Part shown: positions 1-24,166 of the stretch, piece by piece
Layout: every line of letters begins with the position of its first letter
How positions within the stretch are numbered: position 1 is the first letter of the stretch
Origin: Coprothermobacterota bacterium
Lineage (GTDB): Bacteria > Caldisericota > JANLFM01
Direction: 5' to 3'
Assembly: GCA_026389425.1 (NCBI GenBank)
Contig: JAPLHW010000149.1
Coordinates: forward strand, 1-34,729
Length of the DNA stretch: 34,729 nucleotides
Position numbers and translations under genes: made by a program
The notes under the pieces: model-generated
Told to the model about the DNA's origin: nothing
Databases searched by the model: none
Seen by the model: the letters and a program-made list of their open reading frames with translations, nothing else

Positions 1-641
1 TGTCCCGTTTCAATGTCGATGAGCATCACCGGCCCCAGGGCATCCGCTACCTCGACAGCATCCATCCCCCCATCGATCCCTGCCCTGACCCACTCCAGGG
101 TGTTGAGGTGAAAGGTAGGCGAGAGCTTGACGATGATCGGCACCGAAACGGCTTGGCGAACGGCCTTGACAGTCTCGTAGAGCGGTTTGGGATCGTTGAT
201 CTCGGGGGGGGGAAGCTTCATCCCGGGGAATTGCGCCTCCAGATTCTCAGCCAGGTGCGGACAGTGGGTAGGCAGCTCGATGATGTCGGCACCGGCCGCG
301 ACCGCCTCCTGCGCCAACTGAGCCGTCTCCTCGGGAGTGGTCCCAGCCAGATTGGCGATCAGAGGGACGCCTGCCGCCTTGATCTTGGGGAATTCCTCCA
401 TGAACCATTGCTCGCTGGAGAGAACCGCTCCCATCATGCAATTGAGGAAGCCGTTGCGGATGGTGGCGTAACAAGGATGAGGGTCGGGGAGAGCCCAGCG
501 GGTGATGGTCTTGGTGGTGATAGCGGCCGGCCCGAAGCCCGCGATCTGGCAGATGGTGTCCCCATTTCGGCCGTGCTCTCCTGCTGAAACAAGCAGGGGG
601 TTCTTCAAGGTGAGACTCTTGAATTGAACTGACAAGTCCAT
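1..641 (-). CDS. Dihydroorotate dehydrogenase / dihydropyrimidine dehydrogenase PreA-like FMN TIM-barrel protein (runs off the left edge)
   Basis: Not in the ORF track; translated by hand. ATG at 641 after SD GAAGGAGG. Reads MDLSVQFKSLTLKNPLLVSAG...ITTKT...GFLNCMMG...PLIANLAG...IIELPTHCPH...VPIIVKLSP...ADALGPVMLIDIETG, the class 1 DHODH/PreA motif order, open to base 1. Confidence 0.85.
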   Translation of the reverse strand, partial: MDLSVQFKSLTLKNPLLVSAGEHGRNGDTICQIAGFGPAAITTKTITRWALPDPHPCYATIRNGFLNCMMGAVLSSEQWFMEEFPKIKAAGVPLIANLAGTTPEETAQLAQEAVAAGADIIELPTHCPHLAENLEAQFPGMKLPPPEINDPKPLYETVKAVRQAVSVPIIVKLSPTFHLNTLEWVRAGIDGGMDAVEVADALGPVMLIDIETG

Positions 642-680
642 GACGTGCCTCCTTCTCGAAAGAGGATTGCCTTTTTTCAT

Positions 681-728
681 TTCCACCTTATGTAAATCAT
701 TTGCAAAATACCCTTCCGTCAGGTGGAT
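681..728. promoter_or_regulatory. Two candidate IclR-type operator boxes (TTCCAC-CTT-ATGTAA at 681-695; TTCCGT-CAG-GTGGAT at 714-728)
   Basis: Imperfect 15-bp dyads of type TTCCRY-N3-RYGGAA in a divergent promoter region; a near-copy lies at 14010-14024. Confidence 0.4.
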
Positions 729-817
729 GTCAAGGTTATTATCCTCTTAAAAGCGATGAGTAGGGTGCTTCCCACAAAAGTTTTTTTCATCATCCAAATG
801 GATTGCACAGATTGACC

Positions 818-846
818 ATTTCACAACTTTGCCGATCTCCTATAAT
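818..846 (+). promoter_or_regulatory. Putative sigma70 promoter for the first lipoprotein gene
   Basis: Perfect TATAAT at 841-846 in AT-rich intergenic DNA; the -35 region (TTTCAC/TTCACA near 819-825) is weak. Confidence 0.45.
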
Positions 847-969
847 AGGGAAAACGCGAGCCAATTTTTCTACCGGAAAGGAGGTATGGCGAGAAGAAGG
901 ACACGCGTGAGAAGGATAGAGTAGCTTCGGCAAGTGTCAAAATTGGTCGAATCCCAAGGAGGAATACAT

Positions 970-2103: not shown

Positions 2104-2138
2104 ATTACTGGAAGCAAACCTTTGTAGAATCGCCTCTT

Positions 2139-2172
2139 CGTTCGGCTTGGGCTTGTTGCCCCAAGCCGAACG
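2139..2172 (+). terminator. 13-bp stem hairpin after the lipoprotein gene (terminator or mRNA stabilizer)
   Basis: CGTTCGGCTTGGG / CCCAAGCCGAACG perfect inverted repeat followed by GGTTTCT. Confidence 0.6.
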
Positions 2173-2215
2173 GGTTTCTGGGGATGCGATGGCTGCAAGG
2201 ATACGAGGAGGGAAC

Positions 2216-3055
2216 ATGAGGACGAGTATCAACACATGGGTTTTTGGTTTCGATCACCCCATCGAGGACGCTGTGCGGCGCATTGCCGGGTATGGTTTTC
2301 AGGGTGTTGAGGTCCCCTTTCGCGATACAGAGATGAGGTGGACGGGATCTCAGAAGAAACATCTGCTGGAGTCGACCCGGGGATCCGGGTTGCAGGTGGC
2401 GACCCTGTTAGTGGCGTTGGGAATGCTTCCCCCGGAAAATGGGCGCAATCTATCCAGCAGCGATTCGACTCTCCGTCGTCAGGCCGTGGAGTTTTGTCTG
2501 CGAGGCCTTGACTTGGCCTGCGAGTTGGATGCTGACCGGGTCGTCCTCAACGTGGGTAAGCTGGAAGAGGGGCAGGGCGAGGAGGACGCTTGTGCTTTTG
2601 CCGTCGACTCGATTCGCTCCTTATTGGACCGGGCGCCGGAGGGGAGGTGGAAGGCAGTGCTGGAAAACTTCCCGGACCGCTGGATCGGACCTGCTGCGAA
2701 GATGCGGGCGTTGATCGAGAGGGTGGCGAGCCCGCGCTTTGGTGGTCTGCTGGACACAGGTCACCAGAACGTCCTGAAGGAGCCCTTCCGAGATGCGCTG
2801 CGTGAGGTTGGAGCCGCTCTATTCCATCTCCACTTGAACAACAATTCGGGTGATCAGGACTCGCATCACCCGCCGAGCGATGGAACTCTCTCCCGAATGG
2901 ACTTCCTTGACAATTTTCGGGCTCTTCGGCAGGCGGGATACGACGGCTGGTATTCCTTTGAGGTCTTCGGCGCTGATCGCGGGCGTGACCCTGACCTTGT
3001 CTGCCGCGACTGCACTGATTTGATCGCCTTCTTCAATCTGGAGGGAGGTCTCTAG
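2216..3055 (+). CDS. Sugar phosphate isomerase/epimerase (xylose-isomerase-like TIM barrel, ketose 3-epimerase-like)
   Basis: ATG at 2216 after GAGGAGGG. GFQGVE plus metal-ligand motifs LEN, LDTGH, HLHL and FEVF. Confidence 0.85.
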   Translation: MRTSINTWVFGFDHPIEDAVRRIAGYGFQGVEVPFRDTEMRWTGSQKKHLLESTRGSGLQVATLLVALGMLPPENGRNLSSSDSTLRRQAVEFCLRGLDLACELDADRVVLNVGKLEEGQGEEDACAFAVDSIRSLLDRAPEGRWKAVLENFPDRWIGPAAKMRALIERVASPRFGGLLDTGHQNVLKEPFRDALREVGAALFHLHLNNNSGDQDSHHPPSDGTLSRMDFLDNFRALRQAGYDGWYSFEVFGADRGRDPDLVCRDCTDLIAFFNLEGGL

Positions 3056-3056
3056 G

Positions 3057-3088
3057 AAAAATGAACGGGCTGCTGATGCAGCCCGTTC
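3057..3088. terminator. Rho-independent terminator between convergent genes
   Basis: GAACGGGCTGC-TGAT-GCAGCCCGTTC 11-bp stem preceded by an A-run, which is a U-tract on the minus strand. Confidence 0.7.
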
Positions 3089-3141
3089 GGTGGGATGGCA
3101 AGGATGCCGTCTCTAGGAAGGACGGTGTTTGGCCAACCAGA

Positions 3142-3921
3142 TTAATCTCCGATGGTGCGATCCTGCGCTACCTTGCCAATCGCCGTGCGAGCTGCCCCAG
3201 TCAGGAAAAAGGAATCGGTCCCTAGGGCAAGAAACTGGAAACCTTCCTGGATGCGCCGGTTGCATTCTTCCGGTGTGGCTACATGGAACCCGGCTGGGAC
3301 TCCGTACTTCTTCCCGGCGGCGATAATTGTGGCTACCGCCTCCTGGTAGCGAGGGTCGGGATTCTCTCCGAGTACCACGGGGACACCCATCGAAGCCGCC
3401 AGGTCGCCGGGACCGATGAAGTAAGCGTCGATCCCTTCGACGGAGAGGATCTCATCGATGTGGTGGACCGCCTCAATGTGCTCGATCTGTACGATCACCA
3501 GGATTTCCTCATTGGCATGCGCTTTGTAGTCTTTTCCGGCATAGAGATCAACGCGGCCATAGCCGGAGCTGCGGTTGCCAAGTGGCGGATAACGGCAGGC
3601 CTGAACCACCTGAAGCGCTTCCTGGCGGCTGTTAACCATTGGGACAACGATCCCGTAGGCCCCCGCATCGAGCGTTCGCTTGATCAGAGCCGGGTCATTC
3701 CAGGCCACGCGGGCCATCGGCACGGCATCTGTGGCGCAGATCGAGACGAAGCAGGACTGCAGCGTCTCCATGTCGATCGGGCTGTGTTCGGCGTCAACTA
3801 CCAGGAAATCGAAACCAAGGTGGCCCATGGTCTCAGCGCAAATCGGGCTGCAAAGCGAGAGCCAACTGCCAACAGCCGCTTTCTTCTCGCGGAAGAGCTG
3901 TTTCACTTTATTGGGTTTCAT
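3142..3921 (-). CDS. HpcH/HpaI-family class II pyruvate aldolase (GarL/RhmA-like)
   Basis: GFDFLVVDAEHS, LDAGAYGIVVPMV, RYPPLGNR, QIE and FIGPGDL signature motifs. Confidence 0.92.
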   Translation of the reverse strand: MKPNKVKQLFREKKAAVGSWLSLCSPICAETMGHLGFDFLVVDAEHSPIDMETLQSCFVSICATDAVPMARVAWNDPALIKRTLDAGAYGIVVPMVNSRQEALQVVQACRYPPLGNRSSGYGRVDLYAGKDYKAHANEEILVIVQIEHIEAVHHIDEILSVEGIDAYFIGPGDLAASMGVPVVLGENPDPRYQEAVATIIAAGKKYGVPAGFHVATPEECNRRIQEGFQFLALGTDSFFLTGAARTAIGKVAQDRTIGD

Positions 3922-3939
3922 CGCGGATTCCTTTCCAAT

Positions 3940-5010
3940 TTACAGGTCGTACGGGACGCCGAGCTGCTGACCGATCTCCCGCAGGCTGGCGCTCACTTTC
4001 TCGTGCAATGGGATCCCTTCCGTCCTCCGGGCGCGTTCAGTAGCGGCTTCCATCTCGCCGGCCAGGAAGATGTTGGCCACGCCTTCCACCTTCGGCAGCG
4101 CGTGATAGGCTTGAATCAGTTCATCCATCTTGGCTTTGAAGGTATCCACCGGGAGGAATCCATCAATGCGGATGGCGCCGAAGAAATGGTCACACTTGTT
4201 CCCAGCGGCTCCAGGCTCGACCGTTTGCAGTAAACCGGCCACGGAACCAGAAAGGATGTTGCAAAGGATCTCCACCGCCACAGCCAGGGCGAATCCCTTA
4301 TAGACACCCAACTCCGGCGTCCCGCCGAGAGGGAGGAGGCCACCGCCGCCGGCGAAGACAGCTCTGGGATCGGTTGTAATCCCTCCCTGGTTGTCGACTG
4401 CCCAACCGGCTGGCAAGGGAAGGCCCTTGCGCATTGCCTCCGATACCTTGCCTCCAGCTACGACTGAGGTTGCCATGTCGAGGACGAAGGCGGATTCCAC
4501 GCCTGCCGGGACGGCTAGGCTGATGGGATTGGTCCCCACGCCGCGGGCTTTGCTCCCGGGCGGGAAGACGATCGGTCCAGTGGAAGACATCGCCAGCCCG
4601 ATCATATCGTGAGGTAGGGCCATCATCGCGTAGTAGGCGGAAGCACCGAAGTGGGTGCTGTTACGAACTGCCACCAGGCCCACACCGACTTTCCCGGCAC
4701 GCTCGATGGCTTCGGACATAGCGCGATGCCCGACGACGAAACCGATTCCATTATCGCCGTCGATGATCGCTGTGGCGGGAGCCTGGCTAGAAATCGTGAT
4801 GTTGGGATGGATGTTGATGAATCCTTTTTGGATGCGTTGCACGTAGAATTGAGCGAGATGCGCGACACCGTGAGACTCCACGCCTCTCAGGTCGGCAGAG
4901 ACGATTGCATCGGCGGCAATGGCGGCATCCTGGGGGGTGACCCCCAATTTTTCCAGGATGCGGGTGGTAAAACCAATCAGTTGGCCTGAATCAACTCTTT
5001 CTTGCTCCAT
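3940..5010 (-). CDS. Ldh_2-family (type 2 malate/L-lactate, ureidoglycolate, sulfolactate dehydrogenase-like) oxidoreductase
   Basis: ADLRGVESHG, DGDNG.G, RNSTHFGA, GTNPI, LDMATS, PLGG....YKG motifs. ATG at 5010 after AGAAAGGA. Confidence 0.92.
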   Translation of the reverse strand: MEQERVDSGQLIGFTTRILEKLGVTPQDAAIAADAIVSADLRGVESHGVAHLAQFYVQRIQKGFINIHPNITISSQAPATAIIDGDNGIGFVVGHRAMSEAIERAGKVGVGLVAVRNSTHFGASAYYAMMALPHDMIGLAMSSTGPIVFPPGSKARGVGTNPISLAVPAGVESAFVLDMATSVVAGGKVSEAMRKGLPLPAGWAVDNQGGITTDPRAVFAGGGGLLPLGGTPELGVYKGFALAVAVEILCNILSGSVAGLLQTVEPGAAGNKCDHFFGAIRIDGFLPVDTFKAKMDELIQAYHALPKVEGVANIFLAGEMEAATERARRTEGIPLHEKVSASLREIGQQLGVPYDL

Positions 5011-5293
5011 GATCCTATCCTTTCTATTGCTTGTCCCTAGAACTTGCGTCAAAGTCTTGCTGAGATTGGTTTCCTCGTGTACTCTTGATTGCTTCGCGCG
5101 CGAGGGTTAGAAGGGAGCCGCAAGACGGCCGCTGGATTGGATGGTCACTGGAAATAGTGGAGGTGCAAGATACGGCGTGAACACAAGCCGAGATCTCGAG
5201 GTGAGACGCCCTGCCCTTTTGCGAAGACTTAGGGTGGATCTCGAGATTCTACCTTTCCGGTGCCAAGCCATAGGGCCGCACTTTCCCTTTCTA

Positions 5294-5323
5294 TTGACAA
5301 AAGTCAATTTCTCTCAGCATAAT
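5294..5323 (+). promoter_or_regulatory. Putative sigma70 promoter of the transporter/sugar operon
   Basis: TTGACA (5294-5299), 18-nt spacer, CATAAT (5318-5323). The -35 sits inside the palindrome ATTGAC-AAAA-GTCAAT. Confidence 0.6.
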
Positions 5324-5503
5324 TTGGATGTGGAATCATGTCAATGAAGTCCATTTTCGATAGGGCACAGGCGTTTTATGAAAAGCCGTTTCCAAAGAGA
5401 AGCAGATCCTCCCTGCCGAAGGAGGTGAAGAGGCGCGGGATCGTTTGGACCTCGAAGGTACCCCGTCAGAGAAGGTTGATTTAGCAAACTAGGAGGCATT
5501 CGT

Positions 5504-6643
5504 ATGAAATTAAGCAGAGCAATTGTAGTTCTCATAACGGTGGCCGTATTGTTTTCGGCTATCGGTTGCGCCAGCAGCACGCCTACTCCAACACTTACAC
5601 CAACACCCACTTCAACTCCCAGCCCGACCCCCTCCCCGACCGCGACGACTCCCCCTCCACCAACCAGCATACGCCTTGGGGTTTTTATCCCTGGCCGTCT
5701 GGGGGATAGCCCTCCCTATGATGCGCTGGCCAACGGTGCGCAGAAAGCCGCCCTGCGTGACAAGCGCTTGACGGTGGAGGTTTTCGAGGCCGGCTTCGAT
5801 CAGTCCAAGTGGCAGGAACAGCTCACATCTTTCGCTGCTTCCGGTAAATATGACGTGATCTATGCTTCCAACGAAGCTCTCGGCCCGCTGGTGGTCAAAA
5901 CAGCCGCGACTGTGCCGAACGTGAAATTCCTGGTTAACGATTCCTATGTGACCGGCAACGACCGCATTTTCACCGCATTCTTCAACAAGTATCAGCAAGG
6001 TTACCTCTACGGTTACATGATGGCCCTCGTCTCCACCAGCACGCTGCCCGGCGCCAACCCGGACAAGAAGCTCGGCCTTATCTACGGCCAGCATTACACG
6101 ATGATGGATGACCTGATTATCCCCGGCATCGAGGCCGGTGCGAAGGCCGTCGACCCAGCCTTTGAGTTGAAGACGGCGATGCTGGGCAACTGGTACGACG
6201 CCAAGAAGGCTGAATCCCTGGCGAGCAGCCTGATCGATGAAGGCGTCGACTGTCTTGGCGCCATCGCCGGAAGCGGCAATGCCGGCGTCGTCAACGCAGC
6301 CAAAACCCGCGGGGTTTACATGGTTTGGTTCGATGTGGCCGGCTTCGACAAGGCGCCCGGGACCGTCATCGGCACCGTCGGAAGTTCCAACGAAGACCTG
6401 GTGACCCTCGAGTTGAAGAACCTGCTGGATGGGACTATCACCTGGGGCAAACCGCTCATTGTCGGCGCGGAGCAAGGATACATTTCCGTCCCGCTCCTTG
6501 CGCCCGGCTATGTCAACTACATGCCAGCCGACGCACAGAAGAAGTTCGCAGAAGTGTACAACAAAGTCGTCTCTGGCACATTACCTCTCCCCGTTCCGCA
6601 GGCCATCCTGGATAAGCTCGACAAGGCCGCCAAAGGGAGCTAG
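5504..6643 (+). CDS. rfuA: BMP-family ABC substrate-binding lipoprotein, RfuA-like, paralog 2
   Basis: SD AGGAGG, lipobox AIGC, PT linker. Motifs VFIPG..GDSPPY, ALVS.S...ANPDKKLGLI.GQHY..M, GNWYDA and WFD..G...APG as in recalled RfuA. Confidence 0.85.
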   Translation: MKLSRAIVVLITVAVLFSAIGCASSTPTPTLTPTPTSTPSPTPSPTATTPPPPTSIRLGVFIPGRLGDSPPYDALANGAQKAALRDKRLTVEVFEAGFDQSKWQEQLTSFAASGKYDVIYASNEALGPLVVKTAATVPNVKFLVNDSYVTGNDRIFTAFFNKYQQGYLYGYMMALVSTSTLPGANPDKKLGLIYGQHYTMMDDLIIPGIEAGAKAVDPAFELKTAMLGNWYDAKKAESLASSLIDEGVDCLGAIAGSGNAGVVNAAKTRGVYMVWFDVAGFDKAPGTVIGTVGSSNEDLVTLELKNLLDGTITWGKPLIVGAEQGYISVPLLAPGYVNYMPADAQKKFAEVYNKVVSGTLPLPVPQAILDKLDKAAKGS

Positions 6644-6705
6644 GGCTTACACGGAGCCCGTCTTTGGAGCAGACAGCCTGCGGCAGCATGTCCTGATACG
6701 AGATA

Positions 6706-6741
6706 AAATGGCCTGGTCGGGAGAACCCGACCAGGCCATTT
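6706..6741 (+). terminator. 16-bp stem hairpin between the binding-protein and ATPase genes
   Basis: AAATGGCCTGGTCGGG-AGAA-CCCGACCAGGCCATTT; the usual position for a differential mRNA-stability or attenuating hairpin in ABC operons. Confidence 0.65.
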
Positions 6742-6781
6742 CTACCAACGACAAAGCGAAACCGCTGCAAAGAAGGAACCG

Positions 6782-8380: not shown

Positions 8381-8385
8381 TAGCC

Positions 8386-10436: not shown

Positions 10437-10444
10437 TAACTTGC

Positions 10445-10472
10445 ATAGGGGCGACGCATGTGTCGCCCCTGC
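10445..10472. repeat. GTAG-family REP-like palindrome
   Basis: ATAGGGGCGACGCATGTGTCGCCCCTGC; aligns without gaps to the palindrome at 14117-14144. Confidence 0.65.
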
Positions 10473-10475
10473 TAT

Positions 10476-10530
10476 CTTGCGGCAACTTGACAACCCGCGG
10501 CAGCAGCTCTATAGCCCGCGGCAGCGCGTT
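10476..10530 (+). repeat. Degenerate ~18-bp GCGGCAGC-core tandem repeat (3 units)
   Basis: cttgcggcaacttgacaa / cccgcggcagcagctctatag / cccgcggcagcgcgtt; same family as 13077 and 23882. Confidence 0.6.
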
Positions 10531-10552
10531 CTGTGGTAAATAGGAGGATCCG

Positions 10553-11575: not shown

Positions 11576-11581
11576 GGGGGC

Positions 11582-13072: not shown

Positions 13073-13076
13073 AAAG

Positions 13077-13127
13077 GCTGCGGCAGCATGATAGCCCCCG
13101 GCAACTTGACAGCTCGCGGCAGCGTGT
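13077..13127 (+). repeat. 18-bp GCGGCAGC-core tandem repeat (3 units)
   Basis: gctgcggcagcatgatag / cccccggcaacttgacag / ctcgcggcagcgtgt. Confidence 0.65.
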
Positions 13128-13149
13128 CCAAGAAAGGTGATTCCAACCC

Positions 13150-13971: not shown

Positions 13972-14009
13972 CCGGGAGGGCACGATTTTTTCGGCGACCA
14001 TTCCGCTAA

Positions 14010-14043
14010 TTTCACCTTACGTAATTGAATTTTGGATTATAAT
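14010..14043 (+). promoter_or_regulatory. Internal promoter (TATAAT at 14038-14043) with a candidate operator TTTCACCTTACGTAA over the -35 region
   Basis: AT-rich patch; 13/15 identity to the box at 681-695. Confidence 0.5.
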
Positions 14044-14112
14044 AACTAGGGCAACCCGCCCTGTCTCGCCATGCACCTTCAGTGGCAGGTCGAGGTGGAC
14101 CTACAGTCAACG

Positions 14113-14148
14113 GCCAGTAGGAGCAAGGCATGCCTTGCTCCTACTGGC
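14113..14148. repeat. Perfect 36-bp palindrome, GTAG-family REP-like
   Basis: GCCAGTAGGAGCAAGGCA|TGCCTTGCTCCTACTGGC. Confidence 0.8.
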
Positions 14149-14175
14149 GAGCACATTTGAATAGGAGGAAGTAAT

Positions 14176-15183
14176 ATGCAGAACCTGAAGGGACGAGATT
14201 GCATCAGCATCGACGGTTTTTCCGTGGAAGAGATCGAGTTCATCATCGATGTCGGCCGGCAATTGAAAAGGGAGCTGAAGATGGGGCGTTACAATCCTTT
14301 GCTTCTGGGAAAAAGCCTGGCGGCGATCTTCGAGACACCCTCCACCCGGACCAGCATCTCCTTCGAGACCGGCGTACAGCAGATGGGCGGGCACATGCTC
14401 TGGCTGGATCCCCACCGACTGTGGGTGGGCGAGGCCCAGGAGGAAGACTGGCATGACACCATCAAGACCATCGCCCGCTACTGCGACGGCATCGCCTACC
14501 GCTCCATCGGCCAGGCGCGCCAGCTCTCCGCTGCCGAGTTCGCCGATATCCCGGTGATCAACGCCTCCAGCCCGGTGGAGCACCCCTGTCAGTCTTTCGC
14601 CGATGTGCAGACGATGATGGAAAAGAAGGGAGACCTTCGCAAGGCCAAGGTCGCTTTCTGCTGGGGCTACCGAACCGCCAACCCCCCGGCCGGCTTGACC
14701 AACTCCACCATGCTGATGGCTGGGAAGCTTGGATTCGAACTGGCTATCGCTTGCCCGGAAGGGTTCGATCCGGACATGGATGTCTACCGACGAGCCCAAG
14801 AATGCGCAGCCCTTTCCGGCGGTAAGATCTCTTTGGTCCGTTCCTATGAGGAAGCGGTCCAGGACGCTGACTTTATCAACGTCTATTCCTGGGTGTCCCC
14901 GGAGATGTTCGCCAAGGGCCTGGAGACCCATTTCCAGGGCGACGCTGCCTTCCAGGCGCGCAAGGCCGCACTCCTTGAAGAATGGTGCGTAACAGCGAAA
15001 GTCGTGGGGATGGCCAGGAAAGATTGTATGGTCATGCACTGCATGCCCATCTCGCGCAACACCGAGGTGACCGACGAGGTTCTCAACAGCCCCGCCAGCA
15101 TCATTTTCGATCAGGCCGAGAACCGCTTGCATGTGCAGAAAGCGATCATGGCCTTGACCATGGGCACCACGGTCAATTTCTAG
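14176..15183 (+). CDS. Carbamoyltransferase of the OTCase/ATCase superfamily, non-canonical (ArgF'/YgeW-like)
   Basis: Carbamoyl-phosphate motifs STRT, HPCQ, HCMP and QAENRLH are present. The ornithine-binding DxxxSMG is replaced by YSWVSPE. Confidence 0.88.
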   Translation: MQNLKGRDCISIDGFSVEEIEFIIDVGRQLKRELKMGRYNPLLLGKSLAAIFETPSTRTSISFETGVQQMGGHMLWLDPHRLWVGEAQEEDWHDTIKTIARYCDGIAYRSIGQARQLSAAEFADIPVINASSPVEHPCQSFADVQTMMEKKGDLRKAKVAFCWGYRTANPPAGLTNSTMLMAGKLGFELAIACPEGFDPDMDVYRRAQECAALSGGKISLVRSYEEAVQDADFINVYSWVSPEMFAKGLETHFQGDAAFQARKAALLEEWCVTAKVVGMARKDCMVMHCMPISRNTEVTDEVLNSPASIIFDQAENRLHVQKAIMALTMGTTVNF

Positions 15184-15193
15184 GCGAGCACGC

Positions 15194-16039
15194 ATGGTCA
15201 GGTACATCACTCCTCACAGCTTGAACGAGGCCTTACAAATCCTTGATCAGGAGGAGCATTGCCTCCCCCTGGCCGGGGGAACTGACTTGACCTTGCTGGT
15301 GCGGGATCGAACGGTGCAAGTGGAGTGCTTGCTGGACATCAGCAAGCTGCCTGAGCTGGTCGGTGTTCATCAGGAGGGCGGAGAGATCCGGATCGGCCCC
15401 TCTACGACGTTGGCTGATGTCGCCTCATCGCCCCAGTTGCCCACTGCTCTGCGCACTGGTGCGGGTTGGATTGGTTCCCCGCAAATCCGTGCCTTGGGGA
15501 CGATCGGGGGGAATATCTGCAACGCTTCCCCCTGCGGTGACACCCTCAGCCCGCTCCTCGTCCTGGGCGGCCGCTTCCGACTGCGCAGTGCAGGCGGAGA
15601 GCGCGAGGTGCCTGCCGAAGCTTTCTTCCTCGGGCCCAAGAGAACCATTCTCACCCGGGGTGAGCTGCTGGTGGGGATTCATCTCCCCCGAGAGGACGAC
15701 CGGCGTTCAACTTTCCGGAAAATCGGCGGTCGTGGCGCCCAAACCATCGCCCAGGTCAACCTGGCCATCTCCGCTTGCTGGAGGGAGGGGATCCTCAGAC
15801 AACCCCGCCTGGCGGTCGGTTCAGCCGCCCCAACCCCGATCCGCATCCCCGCTGTGGAGCGGATCCTTGATGGACAGAGCCTTGGTGACGAGGTAATCGC
15901 TGAAGCTGCTGAGCGAACGGCAGCGGAGATCCGACCCATCTGTGACCAACGGGCTTCCGATCGGTATCGCCGCTGGGTCGTCCGGGCTCTTTTCCGCGAT
16001 GCCTTGTCATCCCTCACAGAGCAGGAGGTGTATGGATGA
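15194..16039 (+). CDS. Xanthine dehydrogenase-family FAD-binding subunit (XdhB/CoxM-like)
   Basis: LAGGTDL, GSPQIR..GTIGGNICNASPCGD, PICDQRAS..YR. Confidence 0.92.
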   Translation: MVRYITPHSLNEALQILDQEEHCLPLAGGTDLTLLVRDRTVQVECLLDISKLPELVGVHQEGGEIRIGPSTTLADVASSPQLPTALRTGAGWIGSPQIRALGTIGGNICNASPCGDTLSPLLVLGGRFRLRSAGGEREVPAEAFFLGPKRTILTRGELLVGIHLPREDDRRSTFRKIGGRGAQTIAQVNLAISACWREGILRQPRLAVGSAAPTPIRIPAVERILDGQSLGDEVIAEAAERTAAEIRPICDQRASDRYRRWVVRALFRDALSSLTEQEVYG

Positions 16040-16557
16040 GCGAGATCAACACCCGCGGCAGCACGTCAGGGGGGACAGATTTCAAATCTGTCCCCATAGC
16101 ATTCCGCTTGAACGGTCGCCCTGTTTCTGCCTGTATCGACGGCGGCTTGCGCGCCCTCGACCTCTTGCGCGAGGGATTCGGACTAACCGGGGTGAAAGAA
16201 GGATGTGGGCGCGGTGAGTGCGGCGCCTGCACAATCCTCCTCGATGGTCGTCCGGTCAATGCTTGTCTGTTATTGGCAGCTAAATTGGAAGGCTGCGAGG
16301 TGTTGACCATCGAAGGCATGGCTTCTCCAGACGGGACACTTCATCCCTTGCAGGCCGCTTTCCTCAAGGCGGGCGCGGTGCAATGCGGATTCTGCACCCC
16401 GGGAATGGTTCTGGCCGCCAAGAGCCTGCTCGACGCTAGGCCAAACCCCAACGAGGAAGAGATCGCCCGTGCCTTGAGCGGCAACTTCTGTCGATGCACC
16501 GGCTATACCAAGATCATCAAGGCGGTGCACTTAGCCGCCGAGGAGATGAGGCGATGA
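16036..16557 (+). CDS. Xanthine dehydrogenase-family [2Fe-2S] subunit (CoxS-like)
   Basis: GCGRGECGACT, QCGFCTPG, GNFCRCTGY. Confidence 0.95.
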   Translation: MSEINTRGSTSGGTDFKSVPIAFRLNGRPVSACIDGGLRALDLLREGFGLTGVKEGCGRGECGACTILLDGRPVNACLLLAAKLEGCEVLTIEGMASPDGTLHPLQAAFLKAGAVQCGFCTPGMVLAAKSLLDARPNPNEEEIARALSGNFCRCTGYTKIIKAVHLAAEEMRR

Positions 16558-18833
16558 CCGCCCCCTTCCGTACCATCGGTCAACCCGTCAGCAAGATCGA
16601 CGGAGTCGAGCTGGTCACCGGACGGGCACGCTATACGGCCGACCTGCAGTTTCCCGGCACATTGCAAGCGGTGGCCCGTCGCGCCGGGTTCGCGGCTGGC
16701 TTGCTCCATCGTCTGGATGTGGAGGAAGCCCGCCGGTCCCCCGGGGTAGTATTGGTTCTCACCCCTGCGGATCTGCCCGGCCCTAATCTGATCGGTATCC
16801 TACCCCCCTTCGACCAGCCCCTATTGGCCGGCCCGGAGATACGCCACGAAGGCGATTCCTTGGCTCTGGTCGTGGCGGAGACCCAAGATCAGGCCGAGGC
16901 AGCCGCTTCCCTCATCGTAGCCGAGATCGAGCCTTTTCCTCCGCTCCTCGATCCCGAGGAAGCCATGCGCCCGGAGGCGCGCAAGATTCATCCCAACGGC
17001 AACCTGACCTTTGCCAAACAGCTCCTGAAGGGAGATGTCGAGGCTGGTTTCTCCCTAGCCGAAGTGATCGTAGAGGACACCTACCGTACCAGCGTCCAGG
17101 ATCATGCCTACCTGGAGCCGGAAGCCGTGCTAGCCGTGCCGGAGAGCGACGGACGCTTAACGGTGTACGCCTCGTGCCAGTCACCCTTCCACTTGCGAGG
17201 CCACATTGCCGCCAACACCGGCCTCCCCGCCTCTCGTGTGAAAGTCGTGCAGCCCTTCGTCGGCGGATCCTTCGGAGGCAAGGATGATGCCGTTACCGAG
17301 ATGGGCTCGCTGGCAGGTGCGGCGGCCCTTAAGCTGGGTCGCCCGGTACGCATCGTTCACTCCCGCAGAGACTCTTTCCTGGGCTCGCATGCCCGTCATG
17401 CCGCCATCATTCATCTCAAGACCGGCGCTCTGCGCGACGGCACGATCGTCGCCCGCCAGGCCGAGATCCTTCTTGACGGAGGGGCGTACGCCTCGGAGAG
17501 TCCCTTCGTGGTCATGAAAGCGTTAATCCACGTGGCAGGCCCTTATAAGATCCCCCATCTTCGGGTGGACTGCCGCGCCGTTTACACTAACAAACGTCAG
17601 GCTGGAGCGATGCGCGGTTTCGGCGTACCACAAGTCACTTTTGCCTCGGAATCCCAGATCGATGCTCTAGCTCGCGAGCTGAGCTTCGACCCTTGGGAGC
17701 TTCGCCGTCGCAACGCCTTGACGGTGGGCGAAGCCAATGCCACCGGTCAGGTTTTCCAGGAGTCGGTGGGATTGATCCAGACTCTGGAGCTGGTGAAGGT
17801 GGAAGGGGAGTGGCCGGCCTGCTGGGAAAAGGCCCATGCTGGCAGCAACCCTCGCTTCAAGCGAGGTGTCGGACTGGCCGCCATGATGCAGGGAATCTCC
17901 AACGGGGCGGAAGGAGTCGATGTGGTCGGCGCTTCCGTCCAAGTCAGCCAAGACGGTAGCGTCCTGGTCGGGTTGGGCCTGACCGAGTTGGGTCAGGGCA
18001 GCCGAACGGCCATGGCCCAGATTGCCGCTGAGATCTTGGGCGTTCGACTGGAGAAGATCAGCGTCCGGCAAGTGGATACCGATACTGTCCATGATTCCGG
18101 CCCGACCGTGGCCTCCCGCACCACCACAGTGGGGGGGAAAGCAGTCTGGATGGCCGCCCAAGCTGTGCGCACATCACTGTTGGAGATGGCTGGGCTGATG
18201 TTTAAAGCTCCTGCTGAGGCGATTGAGTTGGGGGAAGACCTCGCTTACCTGCGGGAAAACCAAGAAGCCCAGATTCCGCTTGCCCAGGTCGCTACAGCCG
18301 CTTACTGGACTGGCTTTCCTTTGATGAACCTAGCTTTCTCCCGCGCCCCCGACGCGCAGTACGATCACGAGACTCACCAGGGCCAGATCTACATCGCCTA
18401 TAACTATGGCGCTCACCTGATGGAGGTGGAAGTGGACACCTGGACTGGAAAGGTTCGCGTGCTTAGGCACCTTGCCAGCCACGATGTGGGCAAGGTGATC
18501 AACCCCCTGGGAGTAGAAGGCCAAGTGGAGGGAGCTGCCTTGATGGGATTGGGTTTCGCCCACTTGGAGGAAGTCCTTCAGGAGAACGGGAAGGTTCGCA
18601 ATGCCAACTTCGCTGATTACCAGATCCCGTCCTTTGCAGAGCGACTTCCCACCCGATTCCTTGCGGTGGAAGAAGCGACCCCCAATGGCCCCTTCGGCGC
18701 CAAAGGGATCGGTGAACCTCCCCTGGCTGGAACAGCCGCAGCCTTCGCCAACGCGGTCTCGGACGCTTTGGGAATCTCTTTCACGCGTTTGCCCATCACC
18801 CCCCAGCGGATCCTGGAGGCCCTGGAGGGATAA
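16554..18833 (+). CDS. Xanthine dehydrogenase-family molybdopterin-binding subunit
   Basis: ATG at 16554 (ATGA overlap). HAYLE, GGSFGGK, AMRGFG, ELGQG, ASRTT, GQVEG, GAKGIGEPP. Confidence 0.95.
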   Translation: MTAPFRTIGQPVSKIDGVELVTGRARYTADLQFPGTLQAVARRAGFAAGLLHRLDVEEARRSPGVVLVLTPADLPGPNLIGILPPFDQPLLAGPEIRHEGDSLALVVAETQDQAEAAASLIVAEIEPFPPLLDPEEAMRPEARKIHPNGNLTFAKQLLKGDVEAGFSLAEVIVEDTYRTSVQDHAYLEPEAVLAVPESDGRLTVYASCQSPFHLRGHIAANTGLPASRVKVVQPFVGGSFGGKDDAVTEMGSLAGAAALKLGRPVRIVHSRRDSFLGSHARHAAIIHLKTGALRDGTIVARQAEILLDGGAYASESPFVVMKALIHVAGPYKIPHLRVDCRAVYTNKRQAGAMRGFGVPQVTFASESQIDALARELSFDPWELRRRNALTVGEANATGQVFQESVGLIQTLELVKVEGEWPACWEKAHAGSNPRFKRGVGLAAMMQGISNGAEGVDVVGASVQVSQDGSVLVGLGLTELGQGSRTAMAQIAAEILGVRLEKISVRQVDTDTVHDSGPTVASRTTTVGGKAVWMAAQAVRTSLLEMAGLMFKAPAEAIELGEDLAYLRENQEAQIPLAQVATAAYWTGFPLMNLAFSRAPDAQYDHETHQGQIYIAYNYGAHLMEVEVDTWTGKVRVLRHLASHDVGKVINPLGVEGQVEGAALMGLGFAHLEEVLQENGKVRNANFADYQIPSFAERLPTRFLAVEEATPNGPFGAKGIGEPPLAGTAAAFANAVSDALGISFTRLPITPQRILEALEG

Positions 18834-18843
18834 TTGTTCTCAA

Positions 18844-18875
18844 AGGACTTGCTGCCGCAGGCTGGATTGTTCCAA
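18844..18875 (-). repeat. Single GCGGCAGC-core element, an inverted near-copy of 6664-6694
   Basis: The reverse complement ttggaacaatccagcctgcggcagcaagtcct compares with ttggagcagacagcctgcggcagcatgtcct at 6664. Confidence 0.55.
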
Positions 18876-19027
18876 GGTTCCTCCAGCGGAGATCCGAAGA
18901 AAAGCTTCAAGGAGATCGATTCAGAAGAAGGCGGAGCGCAGCGGGCAAGAAGCCTGCGATGGCTTGGGGACAGATTAGACCTCTGGTCAATCCGGAAATC
19001 TGTCACCCTGATAGAAAGGAGATGAAG

Positions 19028-20419
19028 ATGATTGATCTATTGATACGAGGCGGACTCGTCCTCACGCTTGAGCCAAACACCTTGCAAGGACCGGTCTATG
19101 CCGATGGTGCGGTCGCTGTAGAGGGCAATCGCATCGTCGCCGTGGGTCCTACGGCGGAGGTGGAGGCTGCTTTTCCTGATGCCCGTGAGGTGATCGATGC
19201 GCGGGGACGGATCGTCATGCCCGGTTTTGTCTGCACCCACACCCACATGCCGTACGTGCTGGGGCACAATATGCCGGTGGACTTCAGCCAGTTACATTCC
19301 TTCTGGGACATGCTGCAGAAGATGGGATGGAAGTGGTTGGAGGATCTCACTACTGCCCAAGGGGTGTACGCGGCCACCCGCTACGCTGCCGCCAAGATGT
19401 TGAAGAGCGGCACTACCACTGTGTGCGAGCTGGTGGAGGCGCCTATCGCCTTGGGTAGATCACCATCCCCTCTGCAATGCTCCGCCCAGGCTGTCGAGGA
19501 GATCGGCATCCGTGCCCAGATTGGTTTTGAAGTCACCGAGCGGGTCCTCGGCGTGCCTGTTCTGGAGCGGTTGGAGCGGGCCAACGCAGAGAAGGGCTTC
19601 ACCGAGAACCTGGCTTTCCTGGAGAAGCACCCGCCGAGGAACGGCAGTCGCGTGGAAGGGCGCCTGGGAGTGCACACCGCTTTCACCAACTCGTACCAGA
19701 CCCTGCGTCAGGCGCGTGAGGTGGCCGACACCTACGACTGCGGCATTGAGATCCATGTCGCCGAGATCCCCCGTGTCTTCCTGGTGGAGAAATTCGGTAA
19801 ATCCGCACCGGAAGTGCTGGAAGAGACCGGCTTACTGGGGCCGGATGTGATCGCCGCCCACTGCATCGACCTGACCGACGGAGATTTGGAGATCCTTCGC
19901 CGCAACGGGGTGAACGTTGCCCACACGCCGATGAGCAACTCCCTCGGCGGCAATGGCGTGGCCCGCATCCCACACATGCTGGAACTGGGGATCAACGTTA
20001 CCTTGGGCCACGATTGCTTCTTCACCCTGGATTATTCCCAATACTTCCGTTACATGTATCTGTTACACAAGGCCCACAATGCCAACCCGATGTTGATCCC
20101 TCCTTTTCAGGCGCTGGATATCGCCACCGGGAACGGCGCGCGCGCGATGGGCCTGGATGATGAGATCGGCAGCCTGAAGGTCGGCAAGAAGGCCGATCTG
20201 ATCGTGATCCGACCGGATTCGCCCACCCCGACCACGCCTGAGTCGGTCATTTCCTTTTTCACCATGACCTTCGAGGGGCGGCAGGTCGAGCATGTCATCG
20301 TGGACGGCCGGGTGGTGGTGAAGAGCGGCCGCTTGACCACCGCCGACGAGGATGAGGTTCATGCGGCTTGTCTGGAGGAAGCGAAGATCCTCTGGCGTAA
20401 AAACGGTATTTTGATATAG
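19028..20419 (+). CDS. Metal-dependent amidohydrolase (SsnA/AtzA/nucleobase deaminase-like)
   Basis: MPGFVCTHTH, GTTT, HVAE, AAHC, LGHD, GSLKVGKKADL; SD AAAGGAG. Confidence 0.92.
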   Translation: MIDLLIRGGLVLTLEPNTLQGPVYADGAVAVEGNRIVAVGPTAEVEAAFPDAREVIDARGRIVMPGFVCTHTHMPYVLGHNMPVDFSQLHSFWDMLQKMGWKWLEDLTTAQGVYAATRYAAAKMLKSGTTTVCELVEAPIALGRSPSPLQCSAQAVEEIGIRAQIGFEVTERVLGVPVLERLERANAEKGFTENLAFLEKHPPRNGSRVEGRLGVHTAFTNSYQTLRQAREVADTYDCGIEIHVAEIPRVFLVEKFGKSAPEVLEETGLLGPDVIAAHCIDLTDGDLEILRRNGVNVAHTPMSNSLGGNGVARIPHMLELGINVTLGHDCFFTLDYSQYFRYMYLLHKAHNANPMLIPPFQALDIATGNGARAMGLDDEIGSLKVGKKADLIVIRPDSPTPTTPESVISFFTMTFEGRQVEHVIVDGRVVVKSGRLTTADEDEVHAACLEEAKILWRKNGILI

Positions 20420-20477
20420 ACTATCCCATTATCGCCGGGGTCTCTCGGGATCCCCGGCAAAGAAAGCAGGGAACGAA

Positions 20478-21284
20478 GTGAATATGGAACAAAGCAAAGA
20501 AGAGAATGTGAAAGAGGGAAGCGGACGGAAAGTGAATACTATCCAGTCAGTGGACAGGGCTCTGCGTATCCTGGAAGTGATCGCCGGGGCAGGCCGTGAC
20601 CTCGGCCTGGTGGAGGTCAGCAGGTTGGTCGAGCTGGATCCAAGCACCACCTACCGCTTGCTCAAAACACTGGAAGCCCACCAATACGTCAAGCAAGTAC
20701 AGAAGAAGGACAAGTACTCGCTCGGTTTCAAGGCGTTCGAAATCGGCAACGCCATCCCACTTTTGACTCATCTACGCGGCGCTTGCAAGGGTCCGCTAGA
20801 GGCCTTGCGCGACCGCACCGGGGAGACTGCTAATCTGGCTGTCCGGGATGGGCAGGAAGCCCTTTACGTCGAACAGATCTCCGCCCAACAATACACCCTG
20901 CGGGTCAGCTCCGAGGTCGGCCGGCGCGTGCCGTTGCACTCGACGGCGGTCGGAAAAGTCGTTCTCGCCTCTTTCAGCCAGGCAGAGCTGAGCGCTTACC
21001 TGAAGCGCCCCCTTACCCCCTTCACCGCCAAGACCATCACCAGCGCAGACAAATTGCGCGAGCATTTGGAAGAGACCCGCAGGCGCAACTGGGCTCTGGA
21101 CGACGAGGAGTTTGAATTCGGGGCGCGTTGCATCGCCACCCCGGTGAAGAATGCGGCAAATCAGTTCATCGCCGCGGTAAGCATCTCCGGTCCCTCCGTG
21201 CGCATTGGAGAGGACCGCATCACCTTCTTCCTGCCTCTGCTGATGCAGACCGCCACGCTGATCTCCAACTCCCTGAATTACTGA
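20478..21284 (+). CDS. IclR-family transcriptional regulator
   Basis: IQSVDRALRIL helix-turn-helix, STTYRLLKTL, TGETANL, PLHSTAVGK, DDEE..GARCIA, AAVSISGP. Confidence 0.95.
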   Translation: MNMEQSKEENVKEGSGRKVNTIQSVDRALRILEVIAGAGRDLGLVEVSRLVELDPSTTYRLLKTLEAHQYVKQVQKKDKYSLGFKAFEIGNAIPLLTHLRGACKGPLEALRDRTGETANLAVRDGQEALYVEQISAQQYTLRVSSEVGRRVPLHSTAVGKVVLASFSQAELSAYLKRPLTPFTAKTITSADKLREHLEETRRRNWALDDEEFEFGARCIATPVKNAANQFIAAVSISGPSVRIGEDRITFFLPLLMQTATLISNSLNY

Positions 21285-24072: not shown

Positions 24073-24166
24073 CTGCTCGTCCATCGCGGCATCACCCGTA
24101 CCTCGGCCTGGCACCTTCGACTTGAGAAAGAGGGGCGGCAGCCGGAGAAACAAGGGGGAGGTCGGC

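Follow-up and report, generated by a model that had tools for sequence, protein, structure and literature searches.

The locus and its genes

The stretch of DNA analysed here, which we call the window, is the whole 34,729-nucleotide contig JAPLHW010000149.1 (C103) of a Coprothermobacterota bacterium, whose metagenome-assembled genome (G000) comprises 2.06 Mb in 278 contigs and is 86.6% complete. Its first 21,284 nucleotides hold a putative catabolic island, accessory and composite, of an anaerobe, in which the genes of a riboflavin-type (RfuABCD-like) ABC importer are found together with those of catabolic enzymes and of an IclR-family regulator. Gene content was established through Pfam and NCBIfam scans of the 31 open reading frames (ORFs) of the window and an Rfam scan of its entire length. 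Two modules can be distinguished: Part A, made up of a first substrate-binding protein (SBP1, 934–2103) and the genes of 5504–13971, and Part B, made up of 14176–20419 together with a PreA-like reductase (686..3) and the HyuAB subunits encoded on a neighbouring contig. The genes of the two modules and their regulator are the following:

3–686, minus strand: DHO_dh (PreA/PydA/UacX-like) reductase (PF01180), N-terminal 228 residues, cut by the contig start
934–2103, plus strand: SBP1, RfuA-like BMP lipoprotein (Bmp, 152.6 bits)
5504–6643, plus strand: SBP2, RfuA-like BMP lipoprotein (Bmp, 168.9 bits)
6782–8380, plus strand: ABC ATPase, RfuB-like, with two ABC domains (PF00005 in two stretches)
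8131–9426, plus strand: permease, RfuC-like (PF02653)
9423–10436, plus strand: permease, RfuD-like (PF02653)
10553–11575, plus strand: Zn-dependent polyol-type alcohol dehydrogenase, Zn-ADH (ADH_N, ADH_zinc_N)
11582–13072, plus strand: FGGY-family kinase (FGGY_N, FGGY_C)
13150–13971, plus strand: class I (Schiff-base) aldolase of the dihydroxyacetone phosphate (DHAP) type, DeoC/LacD family (PRK07226)
14176–15183, plus strand: carbamoyltransferase of a distinct clade, other than ornithine carbamoyltransferase (OTC; TIGR00658, 265 bits, below cut-off)
15194–18833, plus strand: Mo hydroxylase of the xanthine dehydrogenase (XDH) family, with FAD (15194–16039), 2Fe-2S (16036–16557) and Mo (16494–18833) subunits (Pfam)
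18959–20419, plus strand: amidohydrolase of the deaminase/chlorohydrolase (SsnA-like) group (SsnA models, below cut-offs)
20478–21284, plus strand: IclR-family regulator (HTH_IclR, IclR_C)

The RfuC-like permease probably has its real start near 8377, the listed frame overlapping the end of the ATPase gene. The island extends past base 1, where the reductase is truncated by the contig end; the remainder lies on contig C210 of the same genome, which carries the reductase tail, a second reductase paralogue, HyuA (97% identical) and the start of HyuB. In a close relative (L002), the region divergent upstream of SBP1 is complete and encodes the full reductase, HyuA, HyuB, an octopine-dehydrogenase-like protein and an ADP-forming acyl-CoA synthetase. 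This full-length reductase homologue (L002:6815-7990, minus strand) combines the DHO_dh domain with a pair of 4Fe-4S motifs and reaches 172 bits against PreA, and HyuA and HyuB, from both L002 and C210 and thus outside the window, are the Hydantoinase_A and Hydantoinase_B subunits of the ATP-dependent hydantoinase/oxoprolinase family. On the opposite side, L006, L016, L017 and L018 likewise close their arrays with the IclR gene.

An importer with the riboflavin signature

By inspection, SBP1 and SBP2, which are 59% identical, begin with a signal peptide that ends in AVGC or AIGC and continues into a Pro/Thr/Ser-rich linker. A first reading of the island, made from the sequence alone (the sequence-only reading), had placed five motif blocks in both lipoproteins; in the translations, three of them (DSPxY, EAGxxQxxW and GAxAVDPAFE) stand in both alike, whereas ANxxKKxGxIxGQxYxxM and GNWYD are exact only in SBP2, SBP1 having VN...GQHYTTM and GNWFD in their place. 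Its further claim, that these blocks are the mark of RfuA, agrees with the scores and alignments to solved structures on which our assignment rests: the top solved homologue of SBP2 is 4iil, the riboflavin-bound TP0298 (RfuA) of Treponema pallidum, with 212 bits (E 1.3e-61) against 70.9 bits to PnrA/TmpC (2fqw), while SBP1 reaches 185.7 bits to 4iil against 49 bits to 2fqw, and both are far closer to 4iil than to any other solved BMP protein. According to Deka et al. (2013; PMC3573665), residues Y27, N82, Y157 and W189 separate riboflavin binders from PnrA-like proteins, and S24 is the sole direct polar contact to the riboflavin ring in TP0298. The equivalents of these five residues are kept in SBP1 and SBP2, where they map to DSPpY, SNe, GQhY and GNW, and they are all kept in 23 of 23 SBPs from related loci. 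A protein search with SBP2 returned 54 proteins at 35–100% identity, all of them close relatives and none from Treponema.

SBP2 is followed in 6782–10436 by the two-domain ATPase and the two BPD_transp_2 permeases, which is the RfuABCD arrangement, and the ATPase is 45–67% identical to those of Spirochaetota Rfu-type operons. Gene order, scores and contact residues thus support the RfuABCD-like importer that had been proposed, with two lipoproteins that both carry the published riboflavin signature and are predicted to bind riboflavin. These are the only RfuA-like SBPs in the window's genome, the next BMP paralogue being 30% identical. With the system of T. pallidum the importer shares the BMP lipoprotein, the two-domain ATPase, the two permeases and the residues S24/Y27/N82/Y157/W189; it differs in its two paralogous SBPs, its long Pro/Thr linkers and a Glu in place of Pro83, and also in its setting, as RfuABCD is a stand-alone vitamin operon whereas the importer of the window lies in one array with catabolic enzymes and an IclR gene.

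Since BMP-type SBPs are usually annotated as nucleoside binders, and XDH-type and deaminase-type enzymes are present, the locus could also be read as one of ordinary nucleoside uptake (PnrA/NupN-type) coupled to purine salvage or catabolism. This we hold to be very improbable: the SBPs score three to four times higher to RfuA than to PnrA and have the residues of RfuA at the positions where PnrA departs from it, and neither the 31 ORFs of the window nor the related loci, checked with the window's gene set, contain a nucleoside hydrolase, nucleoside phosphorylase or ribokinase. Nor did the Pfam and NCBIfam scans find an oxygenase among these ORFs, or the Rfam scan a flavin mononucleotide (FMN) riboswitch in the window, where a tRNA was the sole match; in all these absences the sequence-only reading had been right, and the finding of PnrA-type SBPs or of nucleosidases in related clusters, by which it could have been overturned, did not occur.

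A polyol-chain module tied to Rfu-type importers

The three enzymes that follow the importer are related to known families at some distance. The nearest models to the Zn-ADH are IolM, threonine dehydrogenase and idonate 5-dehydrogenase, each under its cut-off; the FGGY kinase scores 197 bits to XylB, also under cut-off, and is 37–43% identical to its orthologues in Spirochaetota Rfu clusters; and the aldolase reaches 244.8 bits to PRK07226 (cut-off 241), its top match in the PDB being MJ0400 (2qjg; 179 bits), followed by the fructose-bisphosphate (FBP) aldolase of T. tenax and LsrF. Enzymes of the MJ0400 and archaeal FBP aldolase type act on ketose 1-phosphates through a Schiff base, and DHAP is the product they release.

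Within the phylum, orthologues of the aldolase are found in 4 of 93 genomes and in one family only (3 of its 8 other members), and the order of the array is conserved within these four. Two of the carriers, G001 and G002 (loci L002 and L004), bear the public labels Coprothermobacterota and Caldisericota, which conflict with their kinship to the window (same genus, same family), so that the conserved order in them is not cross-phylum evidence. Such evidence comes from the Spirochaetota, in which a sample of 401 genomes gave 2 close aldolase homologues and 301 genomes of one order gave 16; 17 loci (these 16 and that of G467; aldolase 47–68% identical) were examined over some ±9 kb each against the window's gene set.

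In 14 of the 17 the Zn-ADH, FGGY kinase and aldolase genes directly adjoin Rfu-type genes (an RfuA-like SBP, the ATPase and two permeases), although in L129 and L131 contig ends leave only the importer permeases in view; in the remaining three (L138, L139 and L140) the contig stops on the side that matters. The trio and the importer occur in three arrangements, importer then trio, trio then importer, and divergent. Among the 12 visible SBPs, 11 keep the four discriminating residues (in the exception W189 is replaced by Phe), and S24 is kept as well in 10. By comparison, 12 more distant aldolases (36–39% identity) have neither an FGGY kinase nor an SBP adjoining. No carbamoyltransferase, XDH or HyuAB gene was seen in the visible ±9 kb or so of any of the 17 loci.

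In L129, L130 and L131 an MFS transporter gene and an AFOR-like gene come after the aldolase, the latter 47–55% identical to the AFOR-like gene found inside ring-module arrays, to which we return below; it is the sole gene common to loci with Part A only and loci with Part B only. The 383-residue ORF that follows the spirochaetal aldolase has no match in the PDB, and its reading as an MFS transporter is an Atlas lead only.

The tie between the polyol-chain module and the Rfu-type importer, which the sequence-only reading had put forward for a single locus, is in consequence strong, and it is the best-supported part of the interpretation. The co-conservation of the trio with Rfu importers, together with an aldolase of the DHAP type, fits a route in which the ribityl chain is phosphorylated, oxidised at the 4' position and split by a retro-aldol reaction. 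The importer with its two lipoproteins would bring in riboflavin, or an analogue very close to it; the FGGY kinase would phosphorylate the 5'-hydroxyl of the ribityl chain and the Zn-ADH would oxidise the 4'-hydroxyl to a ketone, in an order that the scheme leaves undefined, giving an end that resembles a ketose 1-phosphate; and the aldolase would then cleave C2'-C3', with release of DHAP for glycolysis and of formylmethyl-flavin. On the strength of these families and linkages we consider it likely that Part A serves the breakdown of the riboflavin side chain, by way of imported riboflavin or a close analogue.

Three other assignments for the trio were considered and dropped. A ribitol or xylitol utilisation locus would lack a transporter for the free polyol, and the linkage is always to Rfu; an lsr-like locus for autoinducer-2 has against it the scores of the kinase to LsrK (83 bits) and of the aldolase to LsrF (162 bits), both under cut-off, and the lack of LsrB and LsrG; and a pseudouridine or nucleoside locus would be without the glycosidase or kinase of such systems.

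A close known system is the flavin induced neighbourhood (fin) of Clostridium scindens, described in 2026, in which, according to Quiles Perez et al. (PMC13492142), riboflavin induces genes for FinB, a kinase resembling RibF, for the class I aldolase FinC and for the Zn-ADH FinD. The proposal given there is that a triose is freed from the ribityl chain, leaving hydroxyethylflavin or lumichrome, and that the Grd-like products of the long form of the neighbourhood cut the two-carbon stump from N10. Anaerobic cleavage of the riboflavin side chain is thus, as a concept, already in print in that source, the only one in the literature searched to connect formylmethyl- or hydroxyethyl-flavin to an aldolase, and the sequence-only reading, which knew of no gene set assigned to the anaerobic route, has been overtaken on this point. 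The fin systems of C. scindens and Faecalicatena fissicatena share with the window a kinase, a class I aldolase and a Zn-ADH in a riboflavin-auxotrophic anaerobe, and the MFS transporter and AFOR-like genes of the three Spirochaetota loci echo the permeases and the aldehyde dehydrogenase of fin. On the other hand, the window has an FGGY kinase where fin has a RibF-like one and an Rfu ABC importer where fin has RibU, it has no Grd-like FinHI, and a ring module is appended; the aldolases and dehydrogenases of the two belong to the same broad enzyme classes, which were compared by description only.

The ligand could also be another heterocycle with a ribityl or polyol chain, riboflavin being a side substrate only; candidates would be 6,7-dimethyl-8-ribityllumazine, 5-amino-6-ribitylaminouracil, the deazaflavin FO (of methanogen F420) and roseoflavin-type analogues. 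SBPs of the island type have Glu instead of Pro after N82, the two paralogues suggest two related ligands, and the XDH-type hydroxylase, the deaminase and the PreA-like reductase would be better matched to lumazines or uracil derivatives than to the fully substituted isoalloxazine; moreover, SBP2 is, by hand count, about 37% identical to TP0298 over 311 residues, a figure that also tells against riboflavin itself. The SBPs that adjoin the trio in Spirochaetota are, however, orthodox RfuA-type proteins (with N-P, and 43–60% identical to the G003 protein) and often the sole candidate riboflavin importer of an auxotroph, and no alternative ligand is directly indicated, for which reasons we regard this explanation as quite improbable.

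Riboflavin supply in the carriers

Lumazine (6,7-dimethyl-8-ribityllumazine, DMRL) synthase (PF00885) was found in none of 10 carrier genomes and in all 14 controls, which suggests that the host cannot make riboflavin itself. Of 5 Spirochaetota genomes, 4 have no RfuA-like SBP other than the one that adjoins the trio, and where the only recognisable riboflavin importer of an auxotroph is of the Rfu type, it must be used for riboflavin. The conversion of the vitamin raises a further question, given that none of 9 carrier genomes gave a match to the flavokinase domain PF01687, against 10 of 10 bacterial controls, and that the archaeal-type, CTP-dependent kinase PF01982 was seen in G002 only. Eight of the nine (G000, G001, G003, G498, G661, G652, G525 and G467) are therefore without any known riboflavin kinase, even though the FAD_syn domain is present in eight (all but G661). 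In four RibF-like frames (L144–L147) only about 60–70 residues follow FAD_syn and the PTAN motif is missing. The FGGY kinase of the Rfu clusters is in this respect a candidate for the missing riboflavin kinase, much as fin has in FinB a homologue of RibF.

These findings lend themselves to a simpler explanation, namely that Rfu is a plain vitamin importer of an auxotroph and FGGY a non-orthologous riboflavin kinase, with no net catabolism of flavin for energy; the dehydrogenase and aldolase would then clip flavin that is in excess or damaged, or would have a free ketose phosphate as their substrate. All that has just been said of lumazine synthase, of the kinases, of the short tails after FAD_syn and of the sole SBPs speaks for it. 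A kinase alone would be enough for that purpose, and yet all 14 informative loci have kept the Zn-ADH and the DHAP-type aldolase alongside it. G003, which lacks both kinases and also the trio, implies that some other solution must exist, and it is at the same time a counter-example to FGGY as the missing kinase. Finally, G002 keeps the island despite having an FMN riboswitch (118 bits) followed by genes for a RibU-like S component of the energy-coupling factor (ECF) type and for the CTP-dependent riboflavin kinase (L093, G002:C22:309320-312435); with this riboswitch-controlled set present besides the island, the vitamin and catabolic roles are separable. The RibU-like protein and riboswitch of G002 were not found in G000, G001, G003 or G004 (G001 being 89% and G004 80% complete). 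On balance, an import for vitamin supply alone seems to us improbable.

A ring module outside the named families

Judged from model scores and alignments, the enzymes of Part B all fall outside the named families. The carbamoyltransferase (14176..15183) scores 265 bits to the OTC model TIGR00658, whose cut-off is 280.85, and by comparison with the OTC of P. furiosus it has STRTS for STRTR, HCMP for HCLP, and an SMG loop that is replaced and lengthened (YSWVSP plus an insertion, against DVWASMG); its scores to the YgeW models TIGR03316 and NF005538 are 67.6 and 71.3 bits, with cut-offs of 500 and 453. These departures set it apart from the OTCs. The Mo hydroxylase reaches 548 bits to PucD (cut-off 783.65) and 530 to XdhA (780), and the best structures for its Mo subunit are 4-hydroxybenzoyl-CoA reductase (347 bits), nicotinate dehydrogenase (302) and bovine xanthine oxidase (286). 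In bovine numbering, Glu802, Arg880, Phe1009 and Thr1010 are, we assume, the substrate residues of XDH and Glu1261 the catalytic one; the alignment to the bovine enzyme reads E802D, R880K, F1009N and T1010G, with F914 and E1261 kept, so that the hydroxylase looks non-canonical and devoid of the xanthine-binding residues of XDH. The amidohydrolase scores 244.8 and 243.9 bits to the SsnA models TIGR03314 and NF005540 (cut-offs 455.5 and 444), and its top PDB matches are atrazine chlorohydrolase (149 bits), then 3hpa and the deaminase for 5'-methylthioadenosine and S-adenosylhomocysteine (MTA/SAH); it is equally distant from SsnA, the chlorohydrolases and the purine and pterin deaminases. Its reading as a hydantoinase or dihydropyrimidinase was ruled out by these scores and matches, which are of the deaminase/chlorohydrolase type. 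HyuA and HyuB have caprolactamase as their nearest model (745 and 413 bits), under the cut-off of 1000.

A carbamate kinase, which could use a carbamoyl phosphate formed by such a set, is encoded on contig C276 of the window's genome, where other carbamoyltransferases adjoin: in G000:C276:17808-20938 two such genes (27% and 35% identical to that of the island) stand directly before the kinase gene, and the second of them, the 35% identical one, carries one in-frame TAA.

A metagenome scan with an alignment of four of the carbamoyltransferases gave 71 loci, of which 55 have at least 60% identity; these are mostly fragments, with a median length of 6.7 kb, and their carbamoyltransferases are 72–97% identical. 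Among the 55, an octopine-dehydrogenase-like gene (OctDH) before the transferase is found in 38, HyuB in 27, HyuA in 25, an AFOR-like gene after it in 28, the XDH FAD subunit in 19, the amidohydrolase in 9 and the reductase in 5. The conserved array is HyuA, HyuB, OctDH, carbamoyltransferase, a variable insert, the AFOR-like gene, three XDH genes, amidohydrolase and reductase; the ring module is, in other words, a separable and widespread unit. The variable insert takes three forms: none at all; a corrinoid protein with MtmB-like and MttB-like methyltransferases and an ornithine-cyclodeaminase-like gene (5–10 loci per gene); or GrdB, GrdE, thioredoxin reductase and GrdC/D-like genes (6–7 loci). 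Glycine/sarcosine/betaine reductase or corrinoid inserts, in 7 to 10 loci each and immediately behind the carbamoyltransferase, occur among L031, L033, L035, L042, L051, L052, L059 and L067, and L044–L049 and L053, and the MtmB-like and MttB-like genes of these inserts are uninterrupted. Some of the carbamoyltransferase loci have upstream an indolepyruvate-type 2-oxoacid:ferredoxin oxidoreductase and an ADP-forming acyl-CoA synthetase.

RfuA-like SBPs are found in 9 of the 55 loci, in 8 of the 16 that measure at least 13 kb, and beside the reductase in 4 of the 5 that reach it. The SBP comes right after the reductase in L025, L026, L058 and the genome G003 (whose protein scores 289 bits to 4iil), while in L045, L046, L049 and L053 it lies, with an ABC ATPase, divergent upstream of HyuA. 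The fifth locus that reaches the reductase, L029, has instead a permease of the NCS2 xanthine/uracil family and a GntR regulator, and no AFOR-like gene.

The surroundings of the ring module allow for a different account, in which two unrelated pathways have been juxtaposed: Part A would act on the flavin side chain, and Part B would ferment a purine-, hydantoin- or creatinine-like ureide imported otherwise, through hydroxylation or reduction and ring opening, to carbamoyl phosphate and glycine or sarcosine. Part B is separable and far commoner, and only 3 of the 55 loci have Part A. L029 and L030 end in the NCS2 permease with no Rfu gene nearby, and in G216, one of 2 genomes with the module among the 401 Spirochaetota sampled, an M20 peptidase lies inside the array and an ABC system with a family-5 SBP adjoins it. 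Purines, hydantoins and creatinine can give glycine or sarcosine. The Grd and methyltransferase inserts suggest such a product, for which the flavin ring is no obvious source, and together with the NCS2 permease and the M20 peptidase they suggest a purine-, hydantoin- or creatinine-like substrate; G003 and most type II–IV loci moreover have Part B with RfuA-like SBPs and no Part A. All of this speaks against a flavin substrate.

There are also known pathways that Part B resembles. The reductive uric-acid pathway, as set out in a preprint (bioRxiv 10.1101/2025.05.19.654654), uses an XDH homologue, the PF01180 reductase UacX, SsnA, a hydantoinase and the carbamoyltransferase YgeW, and Part B matches it function by function: a Mo hydroxylase, a PF01180/Fe-S reductase, an SsnA-like amidohydrolase, a hydantoinase and a carbamoyltransferase that supplies carbamate kinase, in what is a 2,8-dioxopurine route. 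Unlike the set of that pathway (XdhD-YgfM, YgfK/UacX, SsnA, HyuA, YgeW/UacY, YgeY and YgeX), the enzymes of Part B fall under the family cut-offs, its HyuA/HyuB are ATP-dependent and caprolactamase-like, it has no YgeX and has an octopine-dehydrogenase-like gene, and its transporters are mostly RfuA-like. The anaerobic sequence from N-methylhydantoin to N-carbamoylsarcosine, sarcosine and sarcosine reductase is also known physiology (PMC4417704, PMC5364220). The fermentation of creatinine and N-methylhydantoin by Clostridium sp. FS41 and Tissierella creatinophila shares with Part B a deaminase-type amidohydrolase, a hydantoinase, the removal of a carbamoyl group and, in some loci, sarcosine/glycine reductase; it differs in having N-carbamoylsarcosine amidohydrolase instead of a transferase and in needing neither a Mo hydroxylase nor a PreA-like reductase. 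The window's genome has no GrdB match, nor have G001–G004, in a family search that matched none of 14 controls either and is thus uninformative.

What stands against the juxtaposition is that Part B adjoins SBPs with the riboflavin signature in three architectures, the window's and two more; that none of its enzymes reaches the equivalog cut-offs of SsnA, YgeW, XdhD, XdhA or OTC; that the hydroxylase has D/K/N/G at the XDH positions E802/R880/F1009/T1010; that Grd-like genes belong to the long fin neighbourhood as well; and that the array of the window holds no second importer. We take it to be somewhat unlikely. The alternative, that Part B acts here on a flavin-derived ring, is the simplest reading in this window because Part B follows Part A on one strand with one IclR gene, and it is favoured by the repeated position of the module beside riboflavin-signature SBPs, but we advance it tentatively. 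Accordingly, what the sequence-only reading had said of a cyclic-ureide module for flavin stands as regards the recurrence beside RfuA-like SBPs and is weakened by the NCS2, peptide-type ABC, Grd and corrinoid contexts.

A proposed composite flavin-catabolic island

The gene families, the conservation of residues and the recurrent linkage of genes are established, and they make it possible to join both modules in one scheme. After the side-chain steps given above, Part B would hydroxylate and/or reduce the N-heterocycle, here the pyrimidine portion of the flavin, either as imported or after trimming of its side chain, and would then open the ring hydrolytically; the ureido group of the opened ring would be phosphorolysed to carbamoyl phosphate, from which the carbamate kinase encoded elsewhere in the genome would form ATP, and the IclR protein would be the likely regulator of the whole. 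To this combined reading, of Parts A and B as one composite flavin-catabolic island, we give a probability of about 45%.

Oxygen-dependent routes provide a chemical parallel. In the aerobic lumichrome pathway of Nocardioides simplex, according to PMC12746152, LumH opens the ring, LumI removes urea, LumM deaminates and LumJ is a xanthine oxidase, and in the lost RF route of Pseudomonas it is the C-ring (the pyrimidine ring) of the flavin that is attacked first, with the ribityl chain still attached. The lumichrome pathway (LumH/I/M/KL/J) is like Part B in its pyrimidine ring opening, its removal of the ureido carbon, its deamination and its hydroxylation of the xanthine-oxidase type, the two being likened by reaction type; but the lumichrome and RF routes need a P450 and dioxygenases and release urea, whereas the window has no oxygenases and its carbamoyltransferase would conserve the ureido group.

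To the contexts of the ring module must be added other points that weigh against the composite reading. In an auxotroph with no other importer the Rfu system would also serve vitamin supply, which weakens a purely catabolic view, and in the window's own genus (genomes 74–89% complete) no other riboflavin importer or FMN riboswitch was found. The kinase of the array is of the FGGY type, with no RibF-like kinase as in fin, and among the best 120 of 620 aldolase homologues no protein bears a Lachnospiraceae name. Neither a gene for breaking the N10-C1' bond nor one for a decarboxylase can be recognised in the window. Lastly, all the functions, from the ligand through each reaction to the link of Part B with flavin, are inferred from families and linkage.

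A bolder version would have it that there is, among environmental anaerobes, a widespread side-chain lyase pathway for riboflavin that is independent of O2, in which FGGY is a new riboflavin 5'-kinase that also supplies FMN where all known riboflavin kinases are missing, and that in the window this pathway has been fused to the first anaerobic set for opening the flavin pyrimidine ring, banking the ureido carbon as carbamoyl phosphate and ATP. So extensive a claim we consider unlikely.

The turnover of vitamin B2 in anoxic habitats and guts is nearly unmapped, the sole anaerobic lead being the Lachnospiraceae neighbourhood of 2026, in which no enzyme has been assigned. The present locus and its relatives would constitute a second, different gene set for the same chemical idea, tied in two phyla to an importer of the riboflavin type; this gene set, its tie to Rfu and the fusion with the ureide module were not found in the searchable literature. 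Three small soluble enzymes and two binding proteins become open to direct testing. If the ring module does act on flavin, it would be the first O2-free route for the pyrimidine ring of isoalloxazine and would bring a new substrate class for carbamoyltransferases, and the fact that most carriers are without lumazine synthase and a known riboflavin kinase poses the separate question of the origin of their FMN.

Transcription and habitat

From SBP2 to IclR the genes of the island share one strand, with short gaps; a pattern scan found no terminator-like site in the plus-strand gaps of 6643–21284 and put the best promoter-like site at 5294–5323, ahead of SBP2. Words sampled from 5400–15300 are present at fractions of 0.82–0.93 in runs of a freshwater sediment metagenome and of a second study, which may include the source, and at 0.16–0.24 in four lake-water metatranscriptome runs of one study. 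The contigs from these RNA libraries, of 150–470 nt and mostly at least 99% identical, fall on SBP2, the ATPase, both permeases, the Zn-ADH, the carbamoyltransferase, the XDH subunits, the start of the amidohydrolase and IclR; as contigs only, they give no levels, strands or transcript ends, and the parts left uncovered carry no meaning. Two of them bridge the junction of the Zn-ADH and FGGY genes, which is the sole junction bridged. They are compatible with expression in situ, though DNA carry-over is possible and the evidence is weak. The co-transcription of importer and enzymes that had been proposed is a prediction from the common strand, the short gaps and the lack of terminator-like sites, with RNA contigs across that single junction only.

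Two joints of high depth were observed among the RNA contigs: one from 10470 to 13093, which skips 2622 bases and appears in 4 of 4 runs, and another from 16098 to 18981, which skips 2882 bases and appears in two runs, each with sides of 24–25 letters. Both are probably chimeric or from other organisms. The bin 15974–16640 shows a very high summed depth of RNA contigs.

The three-gene insert and the neighbouring genes

Between the two SBP genes lies a three-gene insert (2147–5052), which is missing from that position in L001, L002, L004 and L017:

2147–3055, plus strand: xylose-isomerase-like TIM barrel (PF01261)
3142–3921, minus strand: HpcH/HpaI-type aldolase (PF03328; GarL/HpaI models at 191–197 bits, under cut-offs)
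3940–5052, minus strand: Ldh_2 family dehydrogenase (PF02615, 380 bits)

The Ldh_2 protein scores 274 bits to the sulfolactate dehydrogenase model, whose cut-off is 500. A strong two-way hairpin at 3063–3088 follows the gene of the HpcH-type aldolase, and divergent promoter-like sites are found at 5294–5344.

Outside the island the window encodes, among others, a lipid kinase, a DOMON/cytochrome b561 protein, a Kelch-repeat protein, Fpg and an MFS transporter, with no link to the island. The DOMON and cytochrome b561 membrane protein adjoins the Kelch-repeat protein, of 855 residues, in 22718–26734 on the minus strand, and both are also found downstream of the island in L017.

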